Assembly: GCA_963764725.1 (NCBI GenBank) | Contig: CAVXTM010000011.1 | Location: 192,001-256,000, forward strand | Direction: 5' to 3' | DNA length: 64,000 nt | From: an uncultured Gammaproteobacteria bacterium | GTDB lineage: Bacteria; Pseudomonadota; Gammaproteobacteria; JACCXJ01 | In this document: piece by piece, positions 34,787-61,358 of the stretch | How positions within the stretch are numbered: the first letter of the stretch is position 1 | How the letters are laid out: each line of letters opens with the position of its first letter | Program-made: the position numbers and the translations under genes | Notes under the pieces: generated by a model | Database searches by the model: none | What the model saw: the letters and a program-made list of their open reading frames with translations, nothing else | What the model was told of the DNA's origin: nothing

Positions 34787-34833
34787 TGTAAGCGGCAGGA
34801 GACGTACCGCTGTTCGCAAGCTAGCCTTTCAGG

Positions 34834-34845
34834 CACGCTACCGCC
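34834..34845 (-). promoter_or_regulatory. ops element (RfaH loading site)
   Basis: GGCGGTAGCGTG, perfect ops consensus, intergenic, 100 nt after the rfaH-like stop. Confidence 0.85.
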
Positions 34846-34944
34846 ATGCGAAGCACTTACGCGTTTCGCGAAAACGGTACTCGATTTGTAGCTTAACCCT
34901 CACTACATCTGCAGCGTGTCGCGGGTAACTGCCCCGCTGACGTC

Positions 34945-35445
34945 CTACGCCCTGTGTAGCAGATCGCGGTCGACGCTGATGTAGTTTTTCCTGCCGAGCA
35001 AATTAAGTAAAATAACCACGCGTTCAGGGCCGGTTTCGGCTTCGAAGATAGCGTCCACGCCAGACATGGGCCCAGCATCAATCACGACCTCTTCTCCAGG
35101 CGCAATTGCAGGCGCCTTGTCAATATGTCGGCCGTCAGCGCGGTCGGCGCTATGCCTCAGCGACTCGACGATGTGATCATCCACCAGGGCCAACTCGTCC
35201 GCGAAGCGCACGAGCTTGGAAACGCCGGTTGTGTACCGGATCGGACCCGTATTATCACAGCCAAGAATCAAGCTCAAAAACAAGTAACGCGGAAACAGCG
35301 GTTCAATGCACTGCCTCCGCCGTCCCCGCTGCCGCCGGGGCTCGGCAATAAGAGGCAGATACACGTCGTAGCTTTGGCGTTCCAGGTTCTCTTCCGCGAC
35401 TCTTTCTTGTCGCGGTTTCGTACAAACAGCGTACCACTGCTTCAT
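34945..35445 (-). CDS. rfaH: Transcription antitermination factor RfaH-like (NusG paralogue), copy 2
   Basis: WYAVCTKPRQE, NLERQ, EPLFPRYLF, KOW (GEEVVIDAGP). ATG 35445 overlaps the epimerase TGA. Confidence 0.88.
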   Translation of the reverse strand: MKQWYAVCTKPRQERVAEENLERQSYDVYLPLIAEPRRQRGRRRQCIEPLFPRYLFLSLILGCDNTGPIRYTTGVSKLVRFADELALVDDHIVESLRHSADRADGRHIDKAPAIAPGEEVVIDAGPMSGVDAIFEAETGPERVVILLNLLGRKNYISVDRDLLHRA

Positions 35446-36437
35446 GCGCACGACCGCATACCCTTTTGTGACAGTCTCGTCTGCCCTGCACGCTCGTTTG
35501 ACCACCAGGTCACCAGCCTGCGCAGACCTTCTTCCAACGAGACCTGCGTTCTAAAGCCGAGCAAGTGCTCCGCCTTGCTAACACCAGCCAGCCTCCTCGA
35601 GACAGTGTTAACTTTTCGAGCAGGACCGTATTCTGGGGCGAGGGTCACGCCCATCACGCAGCCAAGGGTTTCGGCTAGCTCGTTCAGACTCGTTTCGGTT
35701 CCGCTGGCAACATTGATGACATCGTCGGTGATGGACGACTTGGCCGCCTCTAAGTTCGCCCTCGCCACGTCGTCCACAAACACAAAGTCCATGGTCTGCG
35801 TACCGTCGCCGAGAATCAAACAGGGTTGGCCTTTCGCCAAACGCTCCATCCATCGAATCATTACCTCGGTGTATACCCCAAACGCATCCATCCGAGGGCC
35901 ATACACGTTGAAGTAGCGTAGCGCCACATAATTCAACCCATACATCTCGTAAAAGCTGCGCAGAAGGCCCTCGCTATACAACTTGATAGCCCCATAGATC
36001 GTCCTATTATCGTAACCATGATGTGTTTCAAATGTCGGGAATTCCTCGGCCTGTCCATAGATGGAAGCCGAGGAGGCAGCAACAACACGCTTGACCTTGG
36101 CTGCGACCGCAGCCTCGAGAATATTTAATGTACCCGTGGCCAGGACATCATGCGCCAGCCGCGGGTCTTCCGCGCACTGGGTGATACGGATCGCGGCTTC
36201 GTGGAAAACAATGTCAATGCCTTCCATGACCTTCCGCACCAGACTCGTGTCGCGAATATCTCCCTCCACAATGGTCACCCTGCCGCTGGCCATAGCCGGT
36301 GCGATATTCTGCCGCCTGCCGCGAGTGAAGTTATCCAGGACGACAATTTCCTGAACACCGTCGGCGACCAGTTGGTCGGCAATATGAGACCCAATCAGTC
36401 CTGCACCACCCGTTATCAATGCTCGTCTATGGTCCAC
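35442..36437 (-). CDS. NAD-dependent epimerase/dehydratase (extended SDR)
   Basis: ITGGAGLIG, YGAIK (YxxxK), LRYFNVYGP. Confidence 0.92.
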   Translation of the reverse strand: MDHRRALITGGAGLIGSHIADQLVADGVQEIVVLDNFTRGRRQNIAPAMASGRVTIVEGDIRDTSLVRKVMEGIDIVFHEAAIRITQCAEDPRLAHDVLATGTLNILEAAVAAKVKRVVAASSASIYGQAEEFPTFETHHGYDNRTIYGAIKLYSEGLLRSFYEMYGLNYVALRYFNVYGPRMDAFGVYTEVMIRWMERLAKGQPCLILGDGTQTMDFVFVDDVARANLEAAKSSITDDVINVASGTETSLNELAETLGCVMGVTLAPEYGPARKVNTVSRRLAGVSKAEHLLGFRTQVSLEEGLRRLVTWWSNERAGQTRLSQKGMRSCA

Positions 36438-36606
36438 GCTACCTCTCCTTTCTAGGGCTTATTTCTGTCGTTCTCCCGCACATTACGCCATCCGTGGCAC
36501 TAAACCGGGCTGGCACATCAGCGATGTTCTGGCTTTTGCCCTGGTCACCTGGCGTGCGGTTCTAAAGGATGGCCTCAAGATCGGCGTTCTAATCATGCGT
36601 CCAGTC

Positions 36607-38199
36607 TTAAGGGACCGAAGATGAGAAACCGAATGGCGCGAGCAGCCGCTGTATAGGGCGCGGAATGCGGTCCGGGGAGATGAGAGTGAGCAGAACTCGA
36701 ATCGAATAAACACTACTCAGAATCACCGCCAATGTTCCGACGCCGGTCGCCAACAACGAGGGTAGCGCATAGAAGCCGCAGAACACCACCGTGATCAAGG
36801 TGAGGCAAAGCAGGCCCGTTTTTCTGTTCGCGGCCGACCAGCGAAACCCGCTGAGTCGCCGAACGATCGGGTAGATCAGAAGTCCGTGGAAAACATAAGA
36901 TCCAAAGAAAGCAATGCCGGCGCCGTTCAAACCGAACGATGTCACACATATCCACGCGAGACCGACGTTGACGACCGTCCAAGCCAGTTCGGTCCAGAAA
37001 AAGAGTTTTTGCGCGCCTTTTGCCAGGATAATGAAGCCCATCGGCCAGGTAATCACGCGGAGCGTCATTCCAAGGCATATCCAACGCAGGATTCCCACCG
37101 CCGGATCGAATTCGGCGGTATAGAACAAAGCGATTACCACGGGTGCAAATGTGAGGGTGGCTATCACACCCGGACCCGCCAACAGCAGGCTGACTCTGCG
37201 CCTGTTCGTTCACCAATCGGTTGCACTCGGTATTGTCCTTGGCGACGGCGGTCAAGCGGGGATAAAAGTCCGCTCCCATTGCCTGCAGAATGAACCCAAC
37301 ATACAGCCCGCCCAGAGTCCACGCCGATTGATAGAATCCGGCTGCTTCGAAACCGACCATGCGGAGCACAATGATGCGGACCGCGTAGGCGGCCCCCATC
37401 GTCAGAAGCCCACTTGCCATGAATGCGAAGCCGAGCTTCAACAGTGCGGCTGCTTCCTGCCCTGACTTGGGACGCCGTCATTGAAGGCGTCTGGATCTGT
37501 ACCTTCCGGCTGTACCACCATGAGGTGATGATCGTCATCGCGGCAACCGCTACGAGCGATGGCACCACCCCCTCTTCGCGCAAGGAAATACACCAGGGGG
37601 ATGCTGATGATCGTGCCGAAGAGTGTACCCAGTACCCCCATCTTGGCGAGATCAGAGATGCGCCGCATTCCTTGGATCAACGCCCCTTGACCGGCGGATA
37701 CACAACGGAAAAACACAGCGACTGACAGCAGGGCTACGGCCGCGGCGTGTTGATCGCTGCCAAACGTCACGCTGGACACCTGTCTGGAAAACACGACCAG
37801 TAAAACAGCGCCCAATATTCCGAGGACGATCGATGTTCGTCGCAGCACCATGGCGGTTCGCGCGATCCTCTCTGTGTCGCCCGAACCGACTGCTTCGGCA
37901 ATCTGGCGCACGCCACTGCTGTTGATGCCCATTCCGGCAATGCTCTGAGCAAGGTCGACGATCGATCCGTACAGGCCCATCAATCCGACCCCGGCCGGAC
38001 CCAGCAACACCGCCATAGCCTTGGTACGAACGATTCCAATTGCGACGTTCAGCACCGACGAGCCGCCGATCAATGCCGAGGACTTCAGAATCTGGCCGTA
38101 GGTATGCCTCTCAGCCGTGGCCACCTCTGCCGCCTGAGGCATATCTCGTAGCGAGGGAGCCGAAACCGGATTGGCCACGCTAGGCGGCGTCACTCCCAC
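36607..38199 (-). pseudogene. wzx: Wzx flippase (O-antigen translocase) with three apparent +1 frameshifts
   Basis: Four overlapping ORFs join into one multi-TM flippase (YGQILKSSALIGG, RTKAMAVLLGPAGVG, MGADFYPRLT); extra bases near 37584, 37461 and 37195. May be sequencing error. Confidence 0.85.
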
Positions 38200-39442
38200 G
38201 CTTCAGTCGCCTTCCACACGTACGCCGTGGCTCCACAGCGAAATCATCAATTGCCTGCTCATGCTTGGAAAAATTCCTACCGCACGCATCGATTCTGTTA
38301 GGTCCTAGGACCGTTTGGTAATCACCACGCTTCCCGTTTGTATACTGAGCTTCGATCCAGCCATGATAACTGCCATCCATCACGCCTCGCCACCACGCCT
38401 CATTGCCGAGGTACCAGTCGACGGTCTTCTTGAGCCCAGTCTCAAAGGCCTCTTGTGGCTGGAAGCCGAGTTGCTTTTGGATCCTTTCCGCATTGATCGC
38501 ATAGCGGCGGTCATGGCCCGGACGGTCTTTGACAAACTTGATCAATGACTGCGCGCCAATGCCCTTTCCCGCCGGCGAGTCGGGGAAACGTTGGTGCAAG
38601 CTGCCGTCACGGACAAAGGCCTCGTCTAATAAACGGCATATCGCGCTTACCGAAGCAATATTCGTACCCTCGTTCTGCCCGCCTATGTTATAGGTTTCCC
38701 CACCTACACCCCGCTCCAGTATGCATTCGATTCCCCGGCAATGGTCTTCGACGTACAGCCAGTCGCGTACGTTCATACCATCGCCGTATACGCAGATTGG
38801 TTGGCCGTCAAGAACATTGATGATGGTCAGCGGGACGAGTTTCTCTGGGAAATGATAGGGCCCATAGTTATTCGAGCAGTTGCTAATGGTGACTTCAAGA
38901 CCATAAGTTCGGTGATAGGCACGGACCAGGTGATCCGAGGCGGCCTTGCTGGCCGAATAAGGGGAGCTCGGATCATAGGGAGTAGTCTCCTTGAACGCGG
39001 GCGCAGTTGCAGACAAAGAGCCATACACCTCATCTGTGGACACGTGATGAAAACGATGCCTTACCGGTCTGCTAACGCCGTCTAACCAAACTCCCTTGGC
39101 CGCTTTCAAGAGGGTGTGAGTCCCAACGATGTTGGTTTCGATAAATGTATCGGGGCCGAGGATGGAGCGATCGACATGCGACTCGGCGGCGAAATGCACG
39201 ATAGTATCGATACGCGCTTCGCGTAGCAGACGCTCGACCAGGGTCTGGTCACCTATGTCGCCGCGTACGAATTCGTAATTATGGTTCGAGGCGATGGGTT
39301 TCAGGCTCTCAAGATTGCCCGCGTAGGTCAGCGCATCGACAACGATAATGCGGTTTTCGGGGTAGCGCTTTATCCAGTAGTGGACGAAATTCGCGCCGAT
39401 AAAACCCGCGCCACCGGTGACTAACAGTTTGCGATTATTCAT
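38180..39442 (-). CDS. rfbB: dTDP-glucose 4,6-dehydratase
   Basis: TGGAGFIG, HFAAESHVDRS, STDEVYG, YSASK, DRPGHDRRY; ~50 aa atypical C-terminal extension. Confidence 0.95.
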   Translation of the reverse strand: MNNRKLLVTGGAGFIGANFVHYWIKRYPENRIIVVDALTYAGNLESLKPIASNHNYEFVRGDIGDQTLVERLLREARIDTIVHFAAESHVDRSILGPDTFIETNIVGTHTLLKAAKGVWLDGVSRPVRHRFHHVSTDEVYGSLSATAPAFKETTPYDPSSPYSASKAASDHLVRAYHRTYGLEVTISNCSNNYGPYHFPEKLVPLTIINVLDGQPICVYGDGMNVRDWLYVEDHCRGIECILERGVGGETYNIGGQNEGTNIASVSAICRLLDEAFVRDGSLHQRFPDSPAGKGIGAQSLIKFVKDRPGHDRRYAINAERIQKQLGFQPQEAFETGLKKTVDWYLGNEAWWRGVMDGSYHGWIEAQYTNGKRGDYQTVLGPNRIDACGRNFSKHEQAIDDFAVEPRRTCGRRLKRGSDAA

Positions 39443-39529
39443 GGTTTAATCGAAGGTGAGAGTTCGGCAGAAGCTTGCTCTCACGTTGAGGGACAGGCTA
39501 AGACAGCCAGTGACCGAGCTTCCCTAATT

Positions 39530-40414
39530 TTAATCCTCAATCTCATTAAGATCCGCCAGCATCTTCCTCAATGAGGCGCGCCAGTGCGGCGGAATCGAGC
39601 CTAAGAGTCTCCGCGTTGAGGCATTATCCAACACACTATAGGCAGGACGGCGCGCGGCCGTGGGATAGTCGTCTGTGGCGATCGGTATGACTGGGATAGA
39701 ACGCGATAACAGGCCCAATTGCCGCCCCTCTTCCTGGATCGCTACGGCAAAATCGTACCAGCTGACCACACCCGCATCGGTCCAATGATGAAGGCCCGTG
39801 ATCTCTGGCTTAGTCGCTATAGCCCAGATACACTGGGCCAACCCTCTCGCCCAGGTCGGTGTTCCGATCTGGTCCGCAACGACCCTAATCTCGTCGCGCT
39901 CGCGCATCAAACGCAGCATCGTCTTGACGAAGTTGGTGCCATGACTCGAGTAAACCCATGCAGTGCGCAGGACCACTGCTTGCCCATTGCAGATTTCCAT
40001 CACCGCTCGCTCGCCACTGAGTTTACTCGCGCCGTACACCCCAAGGGGGTTTGGCGGATCATTCGGCTTGTACGGCGCGGAGCCATGACCATCGAACACG
40101 AAATCGGTAGAGATTTGTACGAGCCGAGCACGCGCTGCCCCGGCTGCAGTTGCCACATGAGCGGCACCGGTGGAGTTCACGGCATAGGCCCGCTCCGATT
40201 CTTGTTCGGCCTTATCCACCGCGGTATAAGCGGCGGCGTTGATAATGAGATTTGGGCTGATGGAACGTACCGAATGTCGCATGGCATCCGGGTCGCAAAC
40301 GTCAAGCTCCGCTCTCGTTAAGGCGGTAACCTGCCACTGCGGCGGAGCGGTCCTCACAAGCTCCCAGGTTAATTGTCCACCCCCGCCAGTGATGAGGACC
40401 TTCACGGGAAACAC
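39530..40414 (-). CDS. rfbD: dTDP-4-dehydrorhamnose reductase
   Basis: TGGGGQL, NAAAYTAVDKAE, STDFVFDG, YGASK, DQIGTPT. Confidence 0.95.
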   Translation of the reverse strand: MFPVKVLITGGGGQLTWELVRTAPPQWQVTALTRAELDVCDPDAMRHSVRSISPNLIINAAAYTAVDKAEQESERAYAVNSTGAAHVATAAGAARARLVQISTDFVFDGHGSAPYKPNDPPNPLGVYGASKLSGERAVMEICNGQAVVLRTAWVYSSHGTNFVKTMLRLMRERDEIRVVADQIGTPTWARGLAQCIWAIATKPEITGLHHWTDAGVVSWYDFAVAIQEEGRQLGLLSRSIPVIPIATDDYPTAARRPAYSVLDNASTRRLLGSIPPHWRASLRKMLADLNEIED

Positions 40415-40950
40415 TCGGCGTCTCTAAACAATAGTCCCGCTGCATCCTTCGCCGAGAGGTGCGGCAACCCGATACCGATTAGCGGCCAAGCAACTCCCAA
40501 CTCAGAATCATTCCAGCGTAAGCACCGCTCGTGCTGCGGTGCGTAGAAGTCGGTACACTTATAGAATACCTCGGCGCTAGCACTCGTCACATAAAAGCCG
40601 TGCGCAAATCCGGCCGGTGCCCATAGCATTTTTTTATTGTCAGCCGAGAGCCATTCGCCCACCCATTGCCCGAACGTCGGGGAGCGCTTACGCAGATCAA
40701 CGACGACATCGTAGATTTCACCAGCGACAACGCGAACAAGCTTGCCCTGTGTCTGTTGGATCTGATAATGAAGCCCGCGCAGCGTGCCTTGTACCGACTT
40801 ACTGTGATTATCCTGGACGAAATTCACCTCGATTGCGTGCTCGGCGAATTTCCGTGCATGCCAGGTCTCCATGAAGAATCCCCGGTGATCGCCGAAGACC
40901 TCGGGCTCAATGATGACGACATCGGGTATGCGTGCAGGCCCGAATTTCAT
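40402..40950 (-). CDS. rfbC: dTDP-4-dehydrorhamnose 3,5-epimerase
   Basis: [26 protein letters not shown]. Confidence 0.95.
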
Positions 40951-41837
40951 GAAAGCGCGCTCTCGTCCAGCACTTGCAGGAGATACTGGCCGTAACCGCT
41001 GTTGCGTAGCGGCTCTGCGAGCCGCCTCAGCTGCCCAGCATCAATGTAATTGAGGCGGTAAGCAATCTCTTCTGGGCACGCGATCTTGAGTCCTTGACGC
41101 TGCTCGATCGTCTCGATGAACTGCGCCGCGGTAAGCAGGCTCTCATGCGTTCCGGTATCCAACCACGCTGTCCCGCGCCCGAGGATCTCGACCTGCAGCT
41201 TGCCGCGTTCCAAGTAACGCGCGTTCACATCGGTTATCTCAAGCTCCCCGCGCGCTGAGGGCTTAAGCTCACGCGCGACGTTGACGACCGCATTATCGTA
41301 AAAATAGAGCCCGGTGACGGCGTAATTCGAGCGTGGATTGGCTGGCTTCTCCTGCAGTCCCATCGCACAGCCACGGTCGTCGAACTCCACCACCCCGTAG
41401 GCCTTTGGGTTTTGCACTCGATAGGCGAAAATCGTGCCTCCGGCTGGGCGATCGTTGGCCTGGCGCAAGGTCTCGGTGAGATCATGGCCGTAGAAGATGT
41501 TGTCCCCCAAGATCAGCGCGCAGGGATCGCCGCCGATGAAATGCCGGCCGATGATGAAGGCCTGGGCCAGCCCATCGGGCGAGGGCTGTTCTGCATAGGA
41601 AAAGCTCATGCCCCACTGGTTGCCATCGCCGAGTAGATGGGCATAAGCCGGCAGGTCGCGCGGTGTCGAAATGATCAAAACGTGACGGATACCCGCGAGC
41701 ATGAGGGTCGATAACGGATAATATACCATCGGCTTGTCGTAGATTGGCATGAGCTGCTTGCTGACTGCATACGTCAGCGGATAGAGCCGGGTGCCCGATC
41801 CTCCAGCGAGCACGATTCCCTTTCGACGTCCGTTCAT
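40947..41837 (-). CDS. rfbA: Glucose-1-phosphate thymidylyltransferase
   Basis: [44 protein letters not shown]. Confidence 0.96.
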
Positions 41838-41867
41838 CTAAGCCCGCTCGCATTCACAAGAGTTACT

Positions 41868-42142
41868 AGGACCTATCTCAAATTTGCCTACGCAGGATTG
41901 CTATTGTTGCAAGCTGAACAAAGCCTAAGAGATTCTCGGCATAATATTCCCATCGAACGAGGAGACGCCTTTGCCACTGAATCCAGGCGAAGAACCGTTC
42001 AACGAGCTAGCGTCGCAAACGGCGGGGTTTTGCGATTTCGAGCGGTGCTGCGCAATCATCTCGATGCCGTCTTTTTGGAGTCTCTCGTCGAGTTTATCAC
42101 TGTCATAGGCACGGTCGCCTATCAGGTTCTCGGGCTTCGCTG
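41868..42142 (-). mobile_element. IS5-family (IS427/IS1031-like) transposase 3' remnant
   Basis: Manual translation LIGDRAYDSD...VERFFAWIQWQRRLLVRWEYYAENLLGFVQLA; end TTTGAGATAGGTCCTAG. Confidence 0.75.
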
Positions 42143-42249
42143 CACTTAAAATGGTTGAATGTTTCGTTTCCCAATTCCTTTTGTTGAAAACTCGGAGATG
42201 CCCAGTGCAGCCTCAACGCCACGTTAAGAAACCGGTCTTGCGGCGGGCG

Positions 42250-43338
42250 TTAATGGGCGCCGATGGACTGGATCACCACCTTAACCGTCTTGATTAGGAT
42301 TTTTACGTCAAGCAAAAACGAGCAGCTTCGAATATATTGAAGATCGAGCCTCACCATGTCATCAAAGGACGTCTTACTTCGCCCCTCCACCTGCCAAAGA
42401 CCGGTGATACCGGGTTTTATCTCTAGAATTCGCCTGAGATGCCATGATTGGTATTGCTCAGCTTCGTAAGGAAGGGGTGGCCGCGGTCCAACCAGACTCA
42501 TGTCTCCCCTTAGCACATTGAAAAGCTGTGGAAGCTCATCAATGCTTTTTTTGCGAATGATTCTACCAATCCGGGTAACCCGTGGGTCAGATTGTATCTT
42601 GTACAATGGGTTTATCATGTCCCCTTGATTGATCTCTTCAAGCTTGCCGTTGATAAACTTTGTGATGTACTCTCGGTGGATTCGGTCATCCCCGCTGGAA
42701 TGCATGGATCGAAATTTGTAGAAGGTAAAAGGAACTCCCTTTCTACCCAAACGGATTTGCTTGAACAAAACGGGTCCTGGAGAAGTGGTTGTAATAAGCA
42801 ATGCCGTAATCAATATTACTGGCGACAATATTAGTATTGCAAGCAGAGAACCTACGATGTCAACGCCTCGTTTCAATAGATTCCGAAGCGAGATAGATTC
42901 TGTAGCATCCTCAAGAAAGAAAGGAGAAAGCGTTTCTGGATCCTGTTGTTCTGCTGAGAACCTATGAAAGATCTGATCAGGAAAAGTCGCGGTGACGATT
43001 GAGAAAGGAGGCTTTTCATGTCCGTTAAACAGCTTGCTAACACATTGTTCCGCCCCCTTCTCGGTGGTATCTGGAAAAATTACGCCTATGACATTGTCAT
43101 CGACGTATCCAATGATATCGGTTTCCCGTAGGTATTCCGGAAGCGGGGTTATAAATTCCTCAAAGTTATTCAGCTCATTACTCGTCTTGTTCTCAAAGTT
43201 GATAAGCGCAATAGTCAAAGGGGCCTTGGAGCGCTCTGCCCGGCGCCTCTCAATTCGCAAATGCTTCAGGAAGTAAGGCTTCGGAAGCAGCTTGGTCTGC
43301 AAGGAGCTTATCCTGTTATGTACGCTACGATGCGTCAT
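42250..43338 (-). CDS. Priming phosphoglycosyltransferase (Bac_transf) with N-terminal degenerate GGDEF-like domain
   Basis: C-terminal [47 protein letters not shown]; N-terminal residues 15-121 follow the GGDEF pattern with RETD (RxxD). Confidence 0.9.
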
Positions 43339-43492
43339 AGTGTGGTCGTCACGGCGTCACCATCGCGGCTGGAAGCGCGCGTCAAGTCCGAAACTGAAGA
43401 GTCGAGAAGCCCTTGGATTTGGAACTTATTACGATTCCGGCAATGTTGTATAATCCAGTTGAAGGCATGGAATGTACCAATGGCTTGGGTTT

Positions 43493-44677: not shown

Positions 44678-44717
44678 TATCGATAAGTTATCCCTAAATC
44701 CTTTGCGCTCTGGATAA

Positions 44718-45452
44718 TTAGCGTGTACGGTGCGAGGTCTGCCCGACTTCGTGTGCGCCGCGCCACCCTATCACTATGGCTGGAACTCCAGCCACCTTGG
44801 CGTAGTCCGGGACATCGTGCACCACGACAGCTCCGGCACCGACGATAGCACCTTTCCCGATTGTCACACCCGGCAAAATCACCGCGTTAGTGCCAATATC
44901 CGCCCATTCTTTTACCCGAACCGGCTTAATCACCAAGTCGGTATGAATAATAGGCACGTCAAGAGGCAACCCCGTATGAGCCGACCCTAACACTTTTGCA
45001 CCCGGGCCCCAACCAACATAATTCTCGAGGATAAGATCACGAGCGTCGAAGAAACTCTGTGGTCCAATCCAGACGTAGTCGCCTAGCTTACAACTGCCGT
45101 CATACCGTCCTTGAATGTAGGCTTGGCTGCCGATAAATACGCCGCTACCAAGCTCAAATGTTTCAGGATGTTTAAAGCCAACTCCCGGTTCAACGCGCAA
45201 TCCATCGCCGCATACACGGATAAGCGCGCGCCACAATACACGCCGCATGAGGGAGTCAAAGTTACCGTAACCTTGCGAAAACCGGCTGTATAAATTGAGC
45301 AAATCTTCGCGAGTATATTGTTCACGCAATTCACGAGCTAACTCGCAAGCGTACATTGGATCGGGTGCTAGCTTCTGGAGGCCATGGACGGCTTTTACTA
45401 GGCGAGTTCCGACCGAATTATCGCTCGCCATGCTGGGCCTCGTGCACCGCAT
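44718..45452 (-). CDS. Hexapeptide-repeat (left-handed beta-helix) acyltransferase
   Basis: ILPGVTIGKGAIVGAGAVV, VAGVPA; start probably 45431. Confidence 0.9.
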   Translation of the reverse strand: MRCTRPSMASDNSVGTRLVKAVHGLQKLAPDPMYACELARELREQYTREDLLNLYSRFSQGYGNFDSLMRRVLWRALIRVCGDGLRVEPGVGFKHPETFELGSGVFIGSQAYIQGRYDGSCKLGDYVWIGPQSFFDARDLILENYVGWGPGAKVLGSAHTGLPLDVPIIHTDLVIKPVRVKEWADIGTNAVILPGVTIGKGAIVGAGAVVVHDVPDYAKVAGVPAIVIGWRGAHEVGQTSHRTR

Positions 45453-53337: not shown

Positions 53338-53618
53338 AGGCGCTATCGATGCCTAGTCGTCGTCTCCGTCAGCCACTCCGCTTAACGGAAGCCGAAGTCA
53401 TTAACGTAGGCGGTGGCGTCGAGGCTACTGACCACCATCTGCACCTCTACGCTTCGGTCATTCTGTTGTGCCGTACTACGGCACCTCTCCTTGTGCGGAA
53501 ACATGACGCTATTCCCTTTCTCCGAAATATAAAGCCCTCTGCTAGGGCGCGCACCGAAGGCAGCGGACAATGCTCCAAGCGGCGCGCTGTGCGTACCTGG
53601 TCACCACTCACACCTTCC

Positions 53619-56600
53619 TTACTGATAGGTCACTCGAACCGCTACTCTGTCCAACGAAAAGTCGCGGTCTATAGAGGAAGCCACGTTGATGATGCGAACC
53701 CTGAAATTGGCGTTGGAAAAATCACCCACAGTCCAGGTTCGCCCCCAAGTATTCGTCGCACTACCCAGGAAATATGCAAGCGTCGTCGTAGTCAGGGTTG
53801 TCGTACTCAAGGCAGTCGTCCACGTTGTGCCGCCATTCCAGGAGAGCTGCGCGCACATCCTCGGCGCGCCCGCAGCGCTGTCGACCCTTGCGGCCAGGCG
53901 GACTTCGATACCCCGGATGGCTACGCCACTCGGCACAATGAAGTCGTAGTTGTAGTAGTTGTGCTTGTCCTTGCCCGCGCCGGTACAAGACGTGCCTGTG
54001 CCCGTGCCACTATCGGTGTCGATAGCAAACTGGCTATCCTCGACATAGGCGTTAGCAGGAGCGGCGAACCCGTTGTTGTCGCCGGCACTGCTCGTAACCG
54101 CTGCGTTGGCACTCGGGGACCGGAAGCCGGTATTGATCGGGGGAGCGGTCTGCACGGTCAGCGTAGTGTTCCCCGAGACGGCGCCCGAGGTCGCCGAGAT
54201 AGTCGTGGTGCCAGCGCCCGTGCCCGCCGTTGCCAATCCCGCGCTATTGATGGTGGCCACCGCCGTGTTCGACGAGGCCCAGGTTACCTGAGTAGTTATG
54301 TTCTGGGTGCTGCTGTCGGAGTAAGTGCCTGTGGCCGTAAACTGCTGCGTTGCCGACGTTTGGATCGTCGGATTTGCGGGCGTCACCGCAATCGACGCGA
54401 GTGTCGGGGCGGTCCCTGGAATGAATACCACGTCCACCCAGTAATTGCTGGAGGCGAAGGTGTTGGTCGGGAATCCCCCCGCCCCGTACAGGTACACCCC
54501 GTTGCCCCCACTCACGCCGTTCTGCAGCGCATGCAGCGGGGGGGTGTCGACACCGGTGGTGGTGAAGCCCCCTTCATTGAGCGCGTAGTGCCCGTTAGGG
54601 GCGTGGTACGAAACCACATAGACCGTGTTGGCCGTGATCGCCACCGGGCTCGAGAAGTTCACCTGCTGCCAGCCCGAGGCGGTCTCGTTCGTAAAGGTCG
54701 CCTGCGCTAGCAATGTCCCACCGCTGCTCCATAACTTACCTACATGCGTGCCGGTGTTCGTACTGCCCTTGTAGAACCGCACCCCGCACGCCGTGCCGTT
54801 GACATCCGAGCGGAACTTGACCCCCAACTCCACCGCCGAGGTGTCCGGATCTGCAGCCACCGCCGGAACCGCCGTCGCCGGCCAGATCGTGTTGCCGGTA
54901 CAGGTGGCGGCGGTCGCGGTAGTCGCCGTCGCTATGTTCGAGTAGCCGCTGAAATTAGGCACCGCGTCGGCCGCACGCACTCGATACCGATAGGTCGTGC
55001 CCGGCGTCAGCCCACTGTCCGGATGGCTCGTACCGGCCGGGGTCGCCACTTCGACAAAATTGGTACATCCCGCACCTTGACACCGCTCTACTCGATAACC
55101 ACTGACTCCCACGTTATCGGTTGAGCCCGTCCACGTCAGATCGATCTGCGAGGTCCCTACCGCCGTCGCACTGAGATTGGTCGGATCCGTCGGAGGTGTG
55201 GTGTCCGGAGGGGTCCCACCGCTGGTCGTGAATACCACATCCACCCAATAGTTAGTGGCATTGAACGTGTTGGTCGGGAAACCACCCGCCCCATAGACGT
55301 ACACACCGTTACCCCCGCTCTCCCCGTCTCTCAGGAAATACAAGGGGCCGTTCTGAAAACCGCTGCTCGCGAAATAGTTACTGTCAAAAGCGTAACCTCC
55401 GTTCGGAGCATGGTACGAAGCGACGTAAACCGTATTGGGCGTGATCGCCACCGGCGCGCCGAAGCTCACCTGCTGCCAACCCGAGGCGGTTTCGCTGCTG
55501 AAGGTCGCCGTCGCTAGCTGTGTCCCGGACGCTGTCCACAATTTACCGATATGCGTACCGGTGTTACCGCTGCCCTTATAAAACCGGATGCCGGTGATGA
55601 AACCGCCCAAATCTGACCGGAACTTGACGCCGAGCTCGACGGCATTGGGATCGGACGCCGATGGATTCGCCGGCGTCGAACTGCTAAAGCCGCTACAGGG
55701 GCTAGTAGAGCAAGGTGCCGCTTCGGTCGTGAAAGACCAGGTAAAGTCAGAGACCATCGCATTCCCGCCAGCATCTTTCACTCCTGCCGCTTCACCTTTC
55801 ACGGTAGCCGTATAGATCGTTGACGCTAGTAAATTAGAGCTCGGGTCCAAGGTCGCAATACGAGATGCGCCGTTGTACGTTACCGTAGCGGCAACTAAGG
55901 TGCTTCCGGGTCCGCGTAACTCGAACGTACCGGTTCCGACTGTTCCAGAGTTCATGTCCTCGCTAAAGGTAGCGGTAACGGAATCTGCCTGGCTAACGCC
56001 GCTGGCACCGGCACTCGGAGAATGAGACACCACCGTGGGGGGCGTCGTATCTTGCGCGAAGCTTGCCGCGTAGGCCCCCGACAACGCGGAAACCACCGCA
56101 TAGCTCACGCCCTTGATGACCTCGGTCGTGAACGTAATTGAGCTGCCGTTACGCGTGATTCCTGTGAGAACGCCGGCGGTCAACACGCGAGGCACCAACG
56201 CTTGCAGCCCATTGGCCGCACTGTCCTGGGCGACGCTAAAGCTCAGGGTGTTCCCGCTCCAGGCGAACGTTCCGAACGAGGAGTTGTTGCGGCCATCCAG
56301 CCATGCCAGCATCTGCCGGCTCGACACGATTGGTACACCACGGGTGAGTGCCGAGGCGACCACCGCGTCCGCTACCGGCGATGTATTTAAGTCCGTATGC
56401 GCATTGACGGTATAGGCCCCATAGTAGCCTTCCGGACCCAGCGCCCGGTCCAATAGCGTATCGATCGTAAACGGATATTGCTGGTCCGACTCGTCCGTCA
56501 TCTGCGTGGTGGCATTGTAGACATCGACCAAGGTACCGTTGAGCTGGGCGAACCGCATGGGCATAGCCGAGCCGGTGAACAACCCCGGGCGGTTGAGGAC

Positions 56601-59600
56601 CCAGCCCGGAGGCCAAAAATAATAGTTCGTGTCGAGGCGGATCCCATGATTGAACTGAACGATCGCCCCGGTTACCCAGTCGCTCCACATGATACAGTGG
56701 TGGCGCTGCGTTATCGGCGGAGGAATACTTGGGTAATTACTAGTCCAGTCACTGATTTGTTGGGTATAATCATTCTCAAGCGATGCAGGTGTATAGTTGG
56801 TCGGGCAGTTGGCATTAATGTGCAGACCCACTTCAAAGCCGGCCGCGTTGAAGCCCGCCGCTTCTGCATTAGTCAAGGTCGGCGTATTCGGATATACATA
56901 CGAGGTGCCCCTTACACACTCCCAGTTGGCCACGGAGCAACCGGGCGGGCTTAACGAAATAAACTGATTGAATCGACCTTCGGTCCCCCCATTGCCGTGA
57001 TCGTCACCGGTCATGATGACCACCGCCTTCTCACCACGGGGGAAATACCAAAATCGCGGCAAGGGCTTCCGATCCAGATTCATGTGCAGGATCAGGTTTG
57101 CAAGCAGCCGCTGTTGCTCGTCCGCCTGCGGAATAGCGACCTTGTTCAGGTCTACCCAGTCCGGCTGCGGATCTCCATTGGCGTCACCGAAGAACTTGTC
57201 GTCCGAGCGGATAGGGTCGCTTCCGTCGCGTTCCTGCGCTGCCCACGCGGGGTTGCCCTGCCGCGTGTACACGATGGATGTTGCTAGATCATACGTGAAA
57301 GCCGCCGCCTGGCCGCCATTCGCCCCGATGCTACGCATCGTTACCGCAGGATTCGAGGTGGTTGTCGTCGCGTTAACATAGAGCGTCGCAAGGCTTGAGG
57401 CGCTGTTCAGCGTGTACCGATCCGCCGTACCGTGGAACTGGATGGTCTGGCCGACGATTCCGCTGCCGGGCGATTGGCTCGTATCGACAAGGAGGTAAGC
57501 ATTGGACAATGTAGCGCCTGCAGGGGAGATACCGAGCAGGCCCGAGAGCTGCGGATCGGGTCGCATCGCAATCAAATTGCCACCCGCGTTCACCCAGTCA
57601 GTGAACATCCCCACTTGAGCGACCGAAAGGGGCAAGGGCGCCAGGATGACCGCGTCGTAGCTTGCTAGGGTCGCGGCATTCACTGATGAGATATCGCTCA
57701 CGGAGAATAAATTGAGCCCCTCACTGCGCAGTATCTCCGCGTAGTACTTTCCGAAGGTGGAAGAGGCACCGGTGACAACCAATATGGGCCCGCCCGGTCC
57801 CTGGTTCGGATCGGGCAACTGCGCAGCAGCGCCAGGCACCAACCACTCTAAAACCGCGCCAAAGACCCCTTGCAACGAGAGAGTAGCGTTTCGCCTGGTG
57901 TCTGAATAGGTGCCCCGGCTAGAATCGGAGGGAATGAACAAGCCCAGAGTTTGTGATGCAGCGGAGGGTGCGGCTGAGGAGGACCTATTCTGTTGCAGAC
58001 GTTTAAGCGCTCTTCTTACCCTCAGCTTCTTGCCGGCGGAAACGTCCCACTCCGTAAGATCCTCATCCTCATCTCCCACAAATAAGCGGCCAGTCGGATC
58101 GAATGCAAGCGCATTGATGAATCGGTTGTGTCTCGGAAGGTCCCTACGCAGTTGGCCGCTTGCTACATCCCAGACCAGGATGCGCATGTCTTCTCCCGCA
58201 CTCACCACCGTCTGCCCATTGGGACTGATGGCGACCGCCCTAACGGGCGCCTGATGTCCTAGAAGACTTCGGATCTGTTGTCCGGTCGCTGCATTCCATA
58301 CCTTTACCTGAGTATCTTCGCCGGCACTCACGAGGACACTACCGTTTCGGCTAAAAGCGAGCGCATTCACCTCCTCCGAGTGGCCAAGGAGGGTCTTTAC
58401 AAGCTTGCCCGTCACCATATCCCACAGCAGCACACGGGCATCTGCATCACCGCTGGCCAATTGCTTTCCATCCCCGCTAAAAGCGAGGCTATTGACGAAA
58501 TTGGTATGCCCCAACAGGATCCCAGTTAGTTTTTCGGTAGCCGCGTCCCACAACAGGATCCTGGTGTCTTCGCCCGCGGCTGCGAGGATCTTGCCGTCCG
58601 GACTAGCGGCAATCGTTCTGATGGGATGCTCAGAACCTTGCAACACCTTGCTCTGTGTACCAGTTGTGACGTCCCAGAGCTGGACTTCCGTGTCCCGGCC
58701 GGCACTCACTAAACGGGTTCCACCTGCACCGAAAGCAATCCCAGTGACCCCGGCACCATGATGTGCGGCCAGCGCAAACCGTTCTGATCCGGTGGCATCC
58801 CATAGGCGAACCGCACTGTCTTCTCCGGCACTACCTACAAGCGCCCCGTCCGGGCTTACAGCGAGGGCGGTGATACCTTTCCAATTGCGTGCCCGGGCTC
58901 TCTTACGAGTGCCCCGTAGAGCCAAGTCAGCGACAGCGCGTGTCTGGCTTGCGCTGCTTTGATTTTGGAGTCCTGGATCAATAACAGGGGCCACTTCGGC
59001 AGCAGATGAACTGTTGACGGTATTAAGAGTTTTGCTACTGAAATCGGTAGTCTGGAAAGCCAACGGGTCGGATCCAAAACCCGAAATTTGGTGGGCAATC
59101 CGTTCCACCCCGCCTGCGAGGTCCCAGACTATAACCTGCCCATCGTTACTTACGCTCGCTAAAACTTGTCGATTGGGATTAAAAGCAATCTCGGCAACTA
59201 TGTCCTTATGCCCGACAAAGCGTTGGCGTAGCTTGCCACTTGCCACCTCCCATAATAGGATCTCGCTGTTATCACTCACTCCGGCTAACGTCCTACCGTC
59301 CGGGCTGAATGCAAAACCATGCAAAGCGGCATCGCCCCGGCTCAAGAGGGATAAGCGTTCTTCGCCAGATGTTACATCCAAGAGCTTGACTCGTGCGTCG
59401 ATTCCGCCAGTTGCGAGAATGGTCCCGTCGGGGCTAAAAGCAAGTCCGTTAATGGGGGCACGCTGACCGGTTAGAATTTGTTTATCATCACCGGACTCTA
59501 AGTCCCACACGCTGACGTTAGCCTCCTGGTCTACGCTGGCCAGTGTCATACTAACTGGACTAAACGCAAAACCGGTTACTGCGGTACGGCTAGTAAGAGT

Positions 59601-60293
59601 TACGAGTTCTTGACCTGATGTTGGATCCCATAGCCTGATTCTCTCGTCCTCACCACTACTGGCTAAGATAGTCGCATCCCGGGCAAAGGCGATTCGACTG
59701 ACGGCGTCGCCGCTAGACAATGTCCATCGCTGCGAGCGTGACTTTACATCCCAAATCAAAATCTGTTTGCCATCGGCAACACCGGCCAGGGATTCGCCAT
59801 CAGGGCTAAAGAGGAGGTGAGTAACGATACCGTTAGAGGCACCGCTTAGAATCCCGCGTACCTGTCCGGACGGCATGTCCCACAGTGTGATCGTATCTTC
59901 AAGCACGCAAGCCAGGGTTTTGCCATCTGGGCTAAACGCAAGGTCCGCAACGACCGAACCAAGCGGACCCGGTCCAATCAAACGTTGCTTACCCGACAGC
60001 AAATTCAGCAAAACGATTTGCCCATCATCTGTCGCGCTTGCTAAGGAATTACCATCAGGGCTAAACGCAAAGCGGTCGTGATTCGACCGCGTCACGCTTG
60101 TTGACGATACTGGAAGGATTGTGTTGGGATTTGCCGAGGCAACGTTGACTTCGGATACGAGTGCTAAAACGTAAATTAGCACCACTGTAAACACGAACAC
60201 CGTACCCGTGAGGCTAATTAGCCGGACTATGTGATTCCTTGTCATTTTCTTGTTCCTCCTAGGAAGCGGAATGTGTCCATAGTTTTGCGACAC
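53619..60293 (-). CDS. Giant secreted/anchored protein: two WD40 propellers, GATase-like + deacetylase-like barrel, Ig, DUF4082, FN3, DUF4082, Big_2, C-terminal jelly-roll
   Basis: N-terminal hydrophobic segment; ~14 FSPDG...LWD repeats; MTGDDH, EVGLH, QRHHC, DTNY; two VELGVKFRSD domains. SD AGGAGG favours ATG 60245. Confidence 0.85.
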   Translation of the reverse strand: MSQNYGHIPLPRRNKKMTRNHIVRLISLTGTVFVFTVVLIYVLALVSEVNVASANPNTILPVSSTSVTRSNHDRFAFSPDGNSLASATDDGQIVLLNLLSGKQRLIGPGPLGSVVADLAFSPDGKTLACVLEDTITLWDMPSGQVRGILSGASNGIVTHLLFSPDGESLAGVADGKQILIWDVKSRSQRWTLSSGDAVSRIAFARDATILASSGEDERIRLWDPTSGQELVTLTSRTAVTGFAFSPVSMTLASVDQEANVSVWDLESGDDKQILTGQRAPINGLAFSPDGTILATGGIDARVKLLDVTSGEERLSLLSRGDAALHGFAFSPDGRTLAGVSDNSEILLWEVASGKLRQRFVGHKDIVAEIAFNPNRQVLASVSNDGQVIVWDLAGGVERIAHQISGFGSDPLAFQTTDFSSKTLNTVNSSSAAEVAPVIDPGLQNQSSASQTRAVADLALRGTRKRARARNWKGITALAVSPDGALVGSAGEDSAVRLWDATGSERFALAAHHGAGVTGIAFGAGGTRLVSAGRDTEVQLWDVTTGTQSKVLQGSEHPIRTIAASPDGKILAAAGEDTRILLWDAATEKLTGILLGHTNFVNSLAFSGDGKQLASGDADARVLLWDMVTGKLVKTLLGHSEEVNALAFSRNGSVLVSAGEDTQVKVWNAATGQQIRSLLGHQAPVRAVAISPNGQTVVSAGEDMRILVWDVASGQLRRDLPRHNRFINALAFDPTGRLFVGDEDEDLTEWDVSAGKKLRVRRALKRLQQNRSSSAAPSAASQTLGLFIPSDSSRGTYSDTRRNATLSLQGVFGAVLEWLVPGAAAQLPDPNQGPGGPILVVTGASSTFGKYYAEILRSEGLNLFSVSDISSVNAATLASYDAVILAPLPLSVAQVGMFTDWVNAGGNLIAMRPDPQLSGLLGISPAGATLSNAYLLVDTSQSPGSGIVGQTIQFHGTADRYTLNSASSLATLYVNATTTTSNPAVTMRSIGANGGQAAAFTYDLATSIVYTRQGNPAWAAQERDGSDPIRSDDKFFGDANGDPQPDWVDLNKVAIPQADEQQRLLANLILHMNLDRKPLPRFWYFPRGEKAVVIMTGDDHGNGGTEGRFNQFISLSPPGCSVANWECVRGTSYVYPNTPTLTNAEAAGFNAAGFEVGLHINANCPTNYTPASLENDYTQQISDWTSNYPSIPPPITQRHHCIMWSDWVTGAIVQFNHGIRLDTNYYFWPPGWVLNRPGLFTGSAMPMRFAQLNGTLVDVYNATTQMTDESDQQYPFTIDTLLDRALGPEGYYGAYTVNAHTDLNTSPVADAVVASALTRGVPIVSSRQMLAWLDGRNNSSFGTFAWSGNTLSFSVAQDSAANGLQALVPRVLTAGVLTGITRNGSSITFTTEVIKGVSYAVVSALSGAYAASFAQDTTPPTVVSHSPSAGASGVSQADSVTATFSEDMNSGTVGTGTFELRGPGSTLVAATVTYNGASRIATLDPSSNLLASTIYTATVKGEAAGVKDAGGNAMVSDFTWSFTTEAAPCSTSPCSGFSSSTPANPSASDPNAVELGVKFRSDLGGFITGIRFYKGSGNTGTHIGKLWTASGTQLATATFSSETASGWQQVSFGAPVAITPNTVYVASYHAPNGGYAFDSNYFASSGFQNGPLYFLRDGESGGNGVYVYGAGGFPTNTFNATNYWVDVVFTTSGGTPPDTTPPTDPTNLSATAVGTSQIDLTWTGSTDNVGVSGYRVERCQGAGCTNFVEVATPAGTSHPDSGLTPGTTYRYRVRAADAVPNFSGYSNIATATTATAATCTGNTIWPATAVPAVAADPDTSAVELGVKFRSDVNGTACGVRFYKGSTNTGTHVGKLWSSGGTLLAQATFTNETASGWQQVNFSSPVAITANTVYVVSYHAPNGHYALNEGGFTTTGVDTPPLHALQNGVSGGNGVYLYGAGGFPTNTFASSNYWVDVVFIPGTAPTLASIAVTPANPTIQTSATQQFTATGTYSDSSTQNITTQVTWASSNTAVATINSAGLATAGTGAGTTTISATSGAVSGNTTLTVQTAPPINTGFRSPSANAAVTSSAGDNNGFAAPANAYVEDSQFAIDTDSGTGTGTSCTGAGKDKHNYYNYDFIVPSGVAIRGIEVRLAARVDSAAGAPRMCAQLSWNGGTTWTTALSTTTLTTTTLAYFLGSATNTWGRTWTVGDFSNANFRVRIINVASSIDRDFSLDRVAVRVTYQ
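54150..54923. repeat. 774 bp near-perfect duplication, copy 2
   Basis: Partner of 49339-50112. Confidence 0.92.
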
Positions 60294-60723
60294 CCTTCTG
60301 CTAAATTTAGAGAGCTGATCATTAGGTTGGAAGTTTATTTTGAGGCGGATTGATCCAGACTGCTTCTGGCGGGTGCGGCGCCTTGGGTGGTTTTCTCACA
60401 AAACGCTCCGGATGCGCCGCGTATGCTGCCAATAGCACTGCGCGCCGCGCCCGGATTAGAAACTGTCCTAGTGGCCGCTCAGCGGGAATCTCAGCTTAAT
60501 AGAGACAAATGGAGCATTGCCTCATTATGCGGAGATGCACCCGCAAGCATTGCGTGCTAGCGACAGTTAAAGGTCAACGGGAAAAATTTCTACCGTATGC
60601 CTGCCAGGCCGGGAGGATTAATCAAACGGCGTGCTAAGGAACCTAACCGTCTCTCAAAGCTGCCGGGCGAGACTCGATTGAAAGCAAAACCGTGAACGAT
60701 TTTGAACGAATTCGGTGCGAAAC

Positions 60724-60735
60724 AACGCTACCGCC
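60724..60735 (-). promoter_or_regulatory. ops element (RfaH loading site)
   Basis: GGCGGTAGCGTT, intergenic, 114 nt after the rfaH stop, preceded by two hairpins. Confidence 0.8.
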
Positions 60736-60848
60736 CTACAAAACGCCTCCGTGTTTCGTATAGCAGGTCCTTCTATAGGTTGTCGACGCTTCTTAGCTAC
60801 TCCGTCGACGGTTGAGGCGGAAAGAAAACGCCTCAGGTACACCTTAAA

Positions 60849-61358
60849 CTAAGCCAAGTCTAGCAGGTTCCGCGAGACCGTCGCAACAGTTTCCCGCCCC
60901 AACATCTTAAGCAGGATCATCACGCGCCCTTCTGCCGATTCACCCCATACGGTCGCCTGCAGATTAGCGAGCGGCCCCTTTTCAATCATCACGGTGTCGC
61001 CCCTCTGGAACGCCAGTCGCTTTTGGTTATGCAGACCGGTACGCGGATCGGCGGTGCTCTTTATAGAGTCAACAACTACGCCGGGAACAATAGCCGGCTC
61101 CTCTGTGAAACGCACGAAATTCTGTACACCGCTTGTATAGCGAACCGGCCCCATGTTGTCATAGCCGGGCCGGAGGCGTATGAACAGATAACGAGGGAAC
61201 AATGGCTCGATGATCTGTACCCAGCGTTCATATCGTCGGCGTTGTTGATAGATTAAAGGCAAATAGACTTCGTAGCCTTGGCGTTCGAGGTTTTCCTCGG
61301 CAACCGTTTCTTTTCTCGGTTTGGTGTGAACAAGGTACCAATTTTTTACGATATCCAT
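60849..61358 (-). CDS. rfaH: Transcription antitermination factor RfaH-like, copy 1 (head of cluster)
   Basis: WYLVHTKPRKE, NLERQGY, EPLFPRYLF, FVRF, KOW (RGDTVMIEKGP). Confidence 0.9.
   Translation of the reverse strand: MDIVKNWYLVHTKPRKETVAEENLERQGYEVYLPLIYQQRRRYERWVQIIEPLFPRYLFIRLRPGYDNMGPVRYTSGVQNFVRFTEEPAIVPGVVVDSIKSTADPRTGLHNQKRLAFQRGDTVMIEKGPLANLQATVWGESAEGRVMILLKMLGRETVATVSRNLLDLA

Follow-up and report, generated by a model that had tools for sequence, protein, structure and literature searches.

Does a gene cluster that carries two copies of an antiterminator gene, each followed by its own loading site, use them as a relay? This question is raised by a stretch of 64,000 nucleotides from an uncultured gammaproteobacterium (assembly GCA_963764725.1, contig CAVXTM010000011.1, positions 192,001 to 256,000; G000:C11:192001-256000 in our numbering), here called the window; the host genome is 4.2 Mb with 59% G+C. 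In the window, two genes for RfaH-family paralogues of NusG, rfaH1 and rfaH2, are each followed by an ops site, the element known from RfaH of E. coli. A first-pass annotation had proposed that the two pairs, 26 kb apart, act as a relay in which RNA polymerase is reloaded in the middle of the operon. We find that rfaH, a hairpin and an ops site about 100 nt behind the gene form a cassette, that is a self-contained antiterminator with its loading site. The reading that we prefer, with slightly better than even confidence, is that two autonomous loading cassettes have been joined by mosaic assembly, and that the second is a likely reloading point.

All the features of the cassettes and the genes of the cluster lie on the minus strand of the window. 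The gene rfaH1 (60849..61358) codes for 169 amino acids and matches PF02357 with an E-value of 1.9e-20, and rfaH2 (34945..35445) codes for 166 amino acids and matches the same family with an E-value of 6.4e-20; among solved structures, chains of E. coli RfaH are the best match for either protein. The two proteins are 51% identical. Behind rfaH1 lies ops1, GGCGGTAGCGTT (60724..60735), which agrees with the ops consensus at 11 of 12 positions (G12T), and behind rfaH2 lies ops2, GGCGGTAGCGTG (34834..34845), which agrees at all 12. Both are ops 12-mers of the E. coli type, GGCGGTAGnnTG, on the coding (non-template) strand of the array. There are 113 nt between the stop codon of rfaH1 and ops1, whose first base is at +114, and 99 nt between the stop codon of rfaH2 and ops2, whose first base is at +100. 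The sequence thus bears out the coordinates and the spacings of 114 and 100 nt that had been given for these same-strand pairs. It also contains the translational coupling described for rfaH2: its ATG overlaps the TGA stop of a gene for an NAD-dependent epimerase (35442..36437) as ATGA.

Folding by minimum free energy (MFE) places a hairpin directly ahead of each site. Hairpin 1 (TACGAAAC / GTTTTGTA, 60737..60760) ends 2 nt before ops1, and hairpin 2 (GCGAA.CGC / GTG.TTCGC, 34848..34869) ends 3 nt before ops2. The sequence upstream of ops is conserved between both sites of the window and their relatives. Between the rfaH1 stop and its pre-ops hairpin there are two more hairpins (60782..60835, with stems 60835-60829/60819-60813 and 60809-60803/60788-60782). 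This pair is kept in the same-genus loci L009, L010 and L011, with no T-run behind either hairpin, and C-to-T changes in L011 preserve G-U pairing.

The two cassettes stand alone in the genome. The only RfaH-type genes are rfaH1 and rfaH2; one weaker NusG-family match on contig 15 is presumably the housekeeping NusG. The 11-mer GGCGGTAGCGT is not enriched genome-wide, since it occurs 5 times in the 4.2 Mb while its reversed pattern occurs 9 times. The other three copies are all within long open reading frames (ORFs), and the pair in the window is the only intergenic ops of the genome; the sole further exact ops 12-mer is antisense, inside an AcrB-family gene. When the whole genome is scanned with a covariance model of hairpin plus ops (R1), hairpin 2 with ops2 scores 43.5 bits (34882..34826, minus strand), hairpin 1 with ops1 scores 34.7 bits (60772..60716, minus strand) and the next match 23.7 bits. 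From its sequence, the whole RfaH regulon of the organism appears to be this single cluster.

How common is an ops behind rfaH? Within the genus we searched eight other genomes with a profile of the two paralogues at E<=1e-15. Four of them have one match each, all of the rfaH1 type (86-93% identical where measured); no second match, that is no rfaH2, was found in any of the eight at this threshold, so that rfaH2 is present in one of nine genus genomes overall. One of the four matching genomes, G008, is unpublished data, and both the count of four and the ops of locus L018 partly rest on it. In L009 and L010 an ops lies 118-120 nt behind the rfaH1 orthologue, with the flanking sequence conserved too. 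RfaH2 is 72% identical, and RfaH1 49%, to the RfaH of a metagenome-assembled genome of Methylococcales (L012), where an ops follows 96 nt behind rfaH and the cassette sits between a GFO/IDH-DegT pair and a Bac_transf gene. The unit of rfaH followed by ops, as first described in the window, is thus conserved.

Further, we surveyed the class with an even set of 400 genomes, 79 of which have an RfaH at E<=1e-25. Out of 81 matches outside the own genome 80 were taken, with flanks of 900 nt; eight of these loci had less than 800 nt downstream. In 18/80 loci GGCGGTAGCGT follows rfaH on the same strand at a distance of no more than 900 nt; it is upstream of the gene in 5/80 and on the opposite strand in 0/80. 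The downstream spacings fall at 80-149 nt (4 loci, one with two ops), 367 nt (1) and 671-836 nt (13). In the last mode an ORF of about 200-215 amino acids lies in between, and it is a winged-helix regulator in 3/3 tested loci (HTH_24/MarR-like; L021 1421-2017, L034 1401-2039 and L036 1402-2013). Three of the upstream cases have the order ops, an ORF of about 116 amino acids, rfaH, and here too the ORF is of the winged-helix type in 2/2 tested (L077 537-887 and L078 542-889). According to the accessible part of PMC7593976, the RfaH clusters CL2-CL8 adjoin envelope genes, CL4 accompanied by a regulator of the HTH (helix-turn-helix) type, and CL7 lies inside exopolysaccharide operons; our loci with a winged-helix gene probably belong to CL4.

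A third sample consists of 80 metagenome loci with an RfaH 39-52% identical to RfaH2. The ops core is found within 200 nt downstream in 19 of the 71 loci whose downstream sequence reaches 200 nt or more; among the 50 loci where it reaches 900 nt or more, 29 have the core within that distance. Here the spacing modes are 49-210, 414-469 and 737-760 nt. In 41/65 of these loci a co-directional ORF ends between -120 and +40 nt from the RfaH match (8 overlap it by 4 nt), a count that may include spurious ORFs where the DNA is rich in G+C. In 3/160 surveyed loci (L097, L133 and L162) the flanks contain two ops. Judged by this comparison of sequences, members of this non-enteric RfaH clade ordinarily have rfaH inside a gene array, with an ops behind it; what had looked like an oddity of the window becomes, by the counts of 29/50 and 18/80, the norm of the clade. 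An ops directly behind rfaH in non-enteric genomes was not found described in the accessible parts of the literature, and the supplements of PMC7593976 (Data Set S1, Fig. S9) and PMC13015549 (Supplementary Figures 11-12, Table 1) may bear on this. As far as we have seen, the layout is common but undescribed.

A hairpin also belongs to the cassette. We folded the 32 nt upstream of 72 distinct linked ops sites. The hairpin has a median of 9 pairs, and its last paired base is exactly 2 nt before G1 of ops in 52/72 linked sites, against 35/210 control GGCGGTAG sites of the host genome. When positions -1 to -3 are counted the values are 68/72 and 49% of the 210 controls. The mean MFE upstream of ops is -10.1 kcal/mol, compared with -6.0 kcal/mol for shuffled sequences. 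In a covariance-model alignment, which leans towards the modelled structure, 73.7% of the cells pair versus 62.7% in shuffles. The covariation score is 0.266 versus 0.129 in shuffles (0/500 reach 0.266), and sliding the pairs lowers it to 0.086-0.115. Pairing reaches 91% in the outer helix, where all four pairs have changed on both sides, and, because stem lengths differ, only 52% in the poorly aligned inner helix. An alignment of the 72 ops contexts with MAFFT had misplaced the 5' arms and was replaced by the covariance-model alignment. G-U pairs occur in one orientation (27/74 sequences at one pair), which would fit a structure of a single strand, either RNA or non-template DNA. The G12T form of ops1 recurs in 5/72 distinct linked sites.

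A covarying hairpin joined to nearly every linked ops is new here. It should be compared with the JUMPstart motif (RF01707), which likewise is a short structured element just before GGCGGUAGCGUG in the 5' regions of polysaccharide genes. Here, however, the hairpin is larger (about 9 pairs as median), and the conserved GCACUGCA box forms its 3' arm. At the gathering threshold of Rfam no JUMPstart is found in the window; with a lax E-value RF01707, whose gathering score is 35, gives 19.4 bits at ops2 and 18.6 bits at ops1. In 18 further loci it gives 24.9 bits for L046 and no match at E<=1 for the other 17, so none is at threshold. We therefore file the element, on its sequence features, as a JUMPstart-like variant.

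What could such a hairpin do? In the part of PMC5995543 that is accessible, E. coli RNA polymerase pauses at U11 of ops, and the pause at ops is described as class II, backtracked and lacking a hairpin; changing G12 to C abolished the U11 pause in E. coli but not recruitment. With a pause at U11 the base of the hairpin would stand 12 nt behind the paused 3' end. That distance is the geometry of hairpin-stabilised pauses of the his type. By this analogy we infer that the hairpin would prolong the pause at ops, and the effect may matter most at ops1, which has G12T.

The proteins belong to the RfaH family. RfaH2 scores 150.7 bits against TIGR01955, the RfaH model of NCBIfam with a cut-off of 144.5, and RfaH1 scores 141.2 bits, which is 3.3 below the cut-off; RfaH is still by far its best family, the next being UpxY with 86.2. 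Both are below the cut-offs of the UpxY model NF033644 (86.2 and 71.5 bits for RfaH1 and RfaH2, cut-off 100) and of the LoaP model NF033641 (37.6 and 48.4 bits, cut-off 125), and the scores with the NusG model are likewise far lower than with RfaH. Both align to residues 1-154 of E. coli RfaH, with an NGN domain (PF02357) and a C-terminal domain of KOW size.

The residues that contact ops are partly changed. In HMMER alignments the equivalents of E. coli R16, H20 and R73 are V, N and S in RfaH1 and V, N and T in RfaH2, just as had been read by eye. K10, V16, N20, R23, Q24 and T72 are common to both paralogues, and K10, R23, Q24 and T72 are also the E. coli residues; E. coli H65-T66-T67 corresponds to N-T-G in RfaH2. 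From the accessible text of PMC5995543, the side chains in direct contact with ops in E. coli RfaH are K10, H20, R23 and R73, and from that of PMC2871177, strong defects follow from K10A, R16A, H20A, T72A and R73A. The losses are, however, no peculiarity of the window. An alignment of 80 relatives has V at 16 and N at 20, no majority at 73, K10, R23 and T72 at 90% or more, and an invariant Q24, and these residues stand alongside a canonical ops in dozens of loci. Because the consensus of the clade carries the same residues together with a canonical ops, the substitutions would be the sign of a clade whose pocket differs in part while the ops that it reads is the same; they do not speak for a changed target.

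From alignments of 80-82 relatives, AlphaFold2 (AF2) models the C-terminal domain of each paralogue as a beta barrel. For RfaH1 the mean predicted local distance difference test (pLDDT) score is 88.8, with 81-87 in the C-terminal domain; for RfaH2 the mean is 77.1, with 55-71 in that domain. The equivalents of E48 and R138 are kept in both, and at F130 RfaH2 has the E. coli residue and RfaH1 has V; the proteins may therefore still be autoinhibited. We considered the beta domain as proof of monomorphism and rejected it, given the conserved equivalents of E48 and R138 and a prediction made without an E. coli control run.

The predicted fold brings the paralogues close to a recently described group. 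In the accessible part of PMC13015549 (bioRxiv 2026), about 14% of RfaH homologues are called monomorphic; their genes are found inside or beside long operons, some of the residues that bind ops are missing, and in E. coli reporters they were active independently of ops; cis recruitment without ops was proposed for them. Both proteins of the window share the features of that class as far as the accessible part defines it, namely a beta domain in AF2, a position in a long operon, here an envelope-polysaccharide array, and the loss of some ops-binding residues. Unlike those ops-independent homologues, they and most of the surveyed relatives have a canonical ops and a hairpin just behind the gene. 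If the beta prediction holds, the conserved ops behind the gene argues that these proteins would natively use ops.

The array that the cassettes would serve runs co-directionally for about 40 kb behind rfaH1 and ops1, down to 21189. A leader of 431 nt separates ops1 from the first gene. Directly behind it are two giant genes (48808..60293, minus strand). According to Pfam, the first (2224 amino acids) has several WD40 propellers and two DUF4082 domains, and the second (1509 amino acids) has DMFA2_C, LamG, Ig-like and DUF4082 domains; ops1 is thus followed first by genes for giant proteins, not for sugar enzymes. They are followed by a proximal sugar block (36713..48686) with acyltransferases, a GFO/IDH oxidoreductase, two DegT aminotransferases, a priming transferase (Bac_transf), RmlA/C/D, a dehydratase and a flippase, and then by the epimerase gene, rfaH2 and ops2. 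The distal block behind ops2 (21189..34703) codes for a family 2 glycosyltransferase (GT2), a methyltransferase, another GT2, an asparagine synthase, a GT4, a FemAB-like protein, a deacetylase and a last methyltransferase flanked on either side by a protein without a Pfam match. Its G+C is 45-57%, compared with 59% for the genome. Gaps of 413-422 nt occur in the array at 48135/47713, 42250/41837 and 29611/29198.

A sister genome of the genus, G011, shows what the array looks like with one cassette. It is syntenic with the window over 35597-61637, which includes the proximal block, and over 1563-14457; for the segment in between, no nucleotide match to G011 was found except two short weak hits. 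In G011 a co-directional array of about 44 kb comes with a single rfaH and a single ops, the latter bearing T11. Its epimerase orthologue (G011:C2 32652-33482, in L102) is 93% identical up to residue 280 of 331, then diverges, and has two in-frame stops; it is a remnant at the junction where the distal block of G011 begins. An additional ops-like site, GGCGGTAGCGGG (G for T at position 11), is seen in L009 at 558-593 (G011:C2 about 584), about 1.8 kb upstream of the rfaH1 orthologue, and is a weak match to R1 with 15.1 bits; no counterpart of it was seen upstream of rfaH1 in the window.

Contigs from other samples also show breaks around cassette 2. In these the piece with rfaH2 and ops2 is 97-98% identical to the window, the epimerase piece 96% and the glycosyltransferase behind ops2 about 85%, and contigs break at about 34640, at a short repeat at 34748-34787 and at 35463. 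Exactly at 35463, between the end of the epimerase gene and rfaH2, where the X1/X2 contigs break, a contig of run X3 has an additional stretch of about 2 kb, which may be an insertion element of other strains. Since breaks of identity flank it both in G011 and in the metagenome contigs, cassette 2 lies between recombination junctions, where a conserved proximal block meets a swappable distal one. A gain of rfaH2 together with the distal block is only one option, as the truncated epimerase of G011 and the identity profile of X1/X2 also allow a loss in G011 or a junction just after ops2.

Scans for sigma-70 promoters and intrinsic terminators over 21001-62000 gave site numbers at or below those of shuffled sequences, and hence are uninformative. 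On independent promoters between each rfaH and its ops, a point that the first-pass annotation had itself raised against its proposal, the scan is weak evidence: it found no consensus sigma-70 promoter in either interval. Upstream of rfaH1 a weak promoter-like site, ATGACA-16-TAGCAT (61409..61436, minus strand), agrees with the consensus at 9/12 positions and is putative. Among public sequencing runs, none contains half of the words of the query and three RNA runs contain 5-7% of them.

How would two cassettes work in one array? In the reading of two autonomous loading cassettes joined by mosaic assembly, and by analogy with RfaH and ops of E. coli, RNA polymerase leaving rfaH would pause at the hairpin and ops, RfaH would be taken up at the paused ops, and the polysaccharide genes behind would be transcribed without Rho-dependent polarity. 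The 40-kb array would be a mosaic of a conserved proximal and a swappable distal block, and at cassette 2 RfaH could be loaded again onto polymerases that had shed it, or for the first time onto those that set out from internal promoters. Each of the two paralogues can probably use both ops sites, because the predicted DNA-contact residues are the same except for S/T at 73.

Several observations weigh against this reading. Two of the four ops-contact side chains of E. coli, H20 and R73, are replaced, so that recognition of ops is here an assumption, and ops1, with its G12T, lacks a base at which substitution by C abolished the E. coli pause at U11. Which way the swap went is ambiguous, as the epimerase of G011 with its stops may mean that G011 has lost cassette 2; in X1/X2 the cassette travels with the epimerase (96-98% identity) and not with the glycosyltransferase behind it (about 85%). 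Survey loci from related organisms are not independent of one another, and similarity to RfaH2 was the basis for choosing the metagenome loci, which makes the counts descriptive. The chance level of the scans is compatible with internal promoters and with read-through alike, and the contigs of RNA run X18 (151 nt; 34786-34936 and 35092-35240) cannot show starts or ends, strand or continuity.

The reading proposed first was stricter: polymerase loaded at ops1 could not cover more than 40 kb and would have to be reloaded at ops2 by RfaH2 from the same transcript. Such a relay agrees with two pairs on the same strand 26 kb apart, with rfaH2 translationally coupled to the gene upstream, and with the lack of a consensus promoter between rfaH and ops; a broken flippase gene just upstream would expose untranslated RNA to Rho, and L097, L133 and L162 also carry two ops in one array. 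What stands of it is that both modules are real, conserved units. The second is, however, not demanded by length, because the syntenic array of G011 runs about 44 kb on a single rfaH and a single ops. Nor does it look like a fixed design: cassette 2 lies at recombination junctions and has no counterpart in the other eight genus genomes, and among the 79 class genomes with RfaH four have two matches, only the host genome of the window having both in one cluster. Further, E. coli RfaH stays bound once recruited, according to the accessible part of PMC2871177. An obligate relay is thus quite unlikely. It is also unlikely, if less strikingly so, that the array consists of two separate transcription units, with unseen promoters in or after the epimerase and rfaH2 genes or between rfaH and ops, each ops being the leader signal of its own operon and RfaH acting in trans as in E. 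coli. Reading straight on from rfaH into ops is not a fixed trait, because many loci have a winged-helix gene (about 740 nt) or about 420-470 nt between rfaH and ops, and the gaps of 413-422 nt in the array leave room for promoters. The variable region of X1/X2 begins just after ops2, a break that can be likened to the JUMPstart boundary of enterobacterial O-antigen loci. On the other hand, the overlap of 4 nt with the epimerase gene leaves no room for a terminator before rfaH2, the 99-113 nt between gene and site are filled with three conserved hairpins and hold no consensus promoter, and the tight spacing mode of 49-150 nt returns in other loci.

That tight mode would fit a device timed by translation, in which fresh RfaH that is not autoinhibited loads in cis onto the very polymerase that transcribed rfaH; the variants with a regulator gene in between would fit it less well, and we regard the idea as tentative and improbable. 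The hairpin would make ops a long pause and hold the polymerase about 100 nt past the rfaH stop, and the trailing ribosome would release fresh RfaH beside it. If true, the cis recruitment that has been proposed for ancestral beta-RfaH would here have its native form, one that depends on ops, and expression of the distal block would depend on completed transcription and translation of the proximal block. Circuits specific to each paralogue, as with UpxY of Bacteroides, where each RfaH would act only at its own leader and insulate two polysaccharide systems, are very improbable: although identity between the paralogues is only 51%, the leaders are unlike each other outside ops, also in their hairpin stems, and ops1 has T12 where ops2 has G12, the ops cores are identical in 11/12 bases, the predicted DNA contacts are the same except at 73, and both proteins score below the UpxY cut-off. 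We give just as little credence to a decaying passenger, that is rfaH2, ops2 or the proximal block being non-functional and the pairing having no present role. The flippase gene is broken in at least two places, relics of insertion sequences (IS) and transposases occur in the window, and the C-terminal domain of RfaH2 is modelled at low confidence; but both rfaH ORFs are intact and keep the residues invariant in the clade, ops2 is a perfect 12-mer with an intact hairpin and the better R1 score (43.5 bits), and the cassette is 97-98% conserved in contigs from other samples.

Some neighbouring features should be described here. The flippase gene, Wzx-like, is split in two ORFs (36713-38199, minus strand), in comparison with an intact protein of 539 amino acids in G011; the likeness to that protein stops at residue about 208 in the first piece and about 82 in the second, which gives at least two frame breaks, and these make it either a pseudogene or the result of assembly errors. 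The leader of ops1 contains a relic of 51 amino acids ending in ...AHPERFVRKPPKAPHPPEAVWINPPQNKLPT* (60322..60477, minus strand), without a match in a Pfam search, which we take to resemble the C-terminal tail of a transposase or integrase. L009 shares part of the relic and lacks about 190 nt of the leader. Between ops2 and the GT2 gene lies the short hairpin repeat CCCTTCTCCTTTCGGGAGAAGG... (34748..34787, minus strand). It is present on many contigs, with many loose ends, and its read depth in two metagenome runs is 989 and 415, whereas the bins next to it reach about 26 at most. Its likeness to CRISPR-DR57 is weak and below threshold (17.7 bits), and it may be an element like the repetitive extragenic palindromic (REP) sequences. 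Farther away, a c-di-GMP-I riboswitch (RF01051, 73.1 bits; 5973-6064, plus strand) and a PKD/LamG gene (7577-9115, plus strand) have a Mutator-family transposase gene (6297-7550, minus strand) between them. In G011 the counterparts of window 5782-6264 and 7679-9085 adjoin each other; an IS thus seems to have cut the riboswitch off from its gene.

Compared with the system of E. coli, where RfaH and ops serve rfa, rfb, hly, tra and kps, the window has the same type of protein with NGN and KOW domains, the same 12-nt ops and the same type of target, long polysaccharide and giant-protein operons. Unlike the stand-alone rfaH of E. coli, which acts in trans on unlinked operons, both genes lie inside the target cluster; ops stands behind rfaH and not only in distant leaders, the regulon appears to be one cluster, and the C-terminal domain is predicted by AF2 as beta and not alpha. 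UpxY of Bacteroides, TaA of Myxococcus and LoaP of Bacillus resemble the window in being encoded at the head of, or inside, the polysaccharide or polyketide cluster they are thought to serve. To our knowledge these three systems do not use ops. UpxY proteins are locus-specific and paired with UpxZ, and recruitment is known only for E. coli RfaH, both as stated in the accessible part of PMC7593976. In PrfaH of IncX plasmids, as far as the accessible part of PMC11880322 (Commun Biol 2025) describes it, an RfaH-like gene is co-transcribed with its target operon and the unit has an ops-like site, which lies upstream, between the promoter and prfaH, whereas here it lies downstream of rfaH. Among published cases this one, as far as we have seen, comes nearest to the cassette.

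RfaH is a model both for sequence-specific loading of an elongation factor and for fold switching in proteins, and the question at stake is how the ancestors of RfaH were targeted before autoinhibition evolved. The cluster with two cassettes is in itself a modest curiosity; the composite of hairpin and ops, and the link to beta-RfaH, are worth following. A large environmental clade lacks two of the four ops contacts of E. coli, yet has a canonical ops and a covarying hairpin behind rfaH. The cassette of about 700 bp is a portable test object for recruitment in cis versus in trans, for a pause stabilised by a hairpin and for the reading of T6 without H20 and R73, in which R70 is a candidate. 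For annotation, a cassette of rfaH, hairpin and ops can be taken as the start of a polysaccharide block under common regulation and as a likely boundary of recombination.

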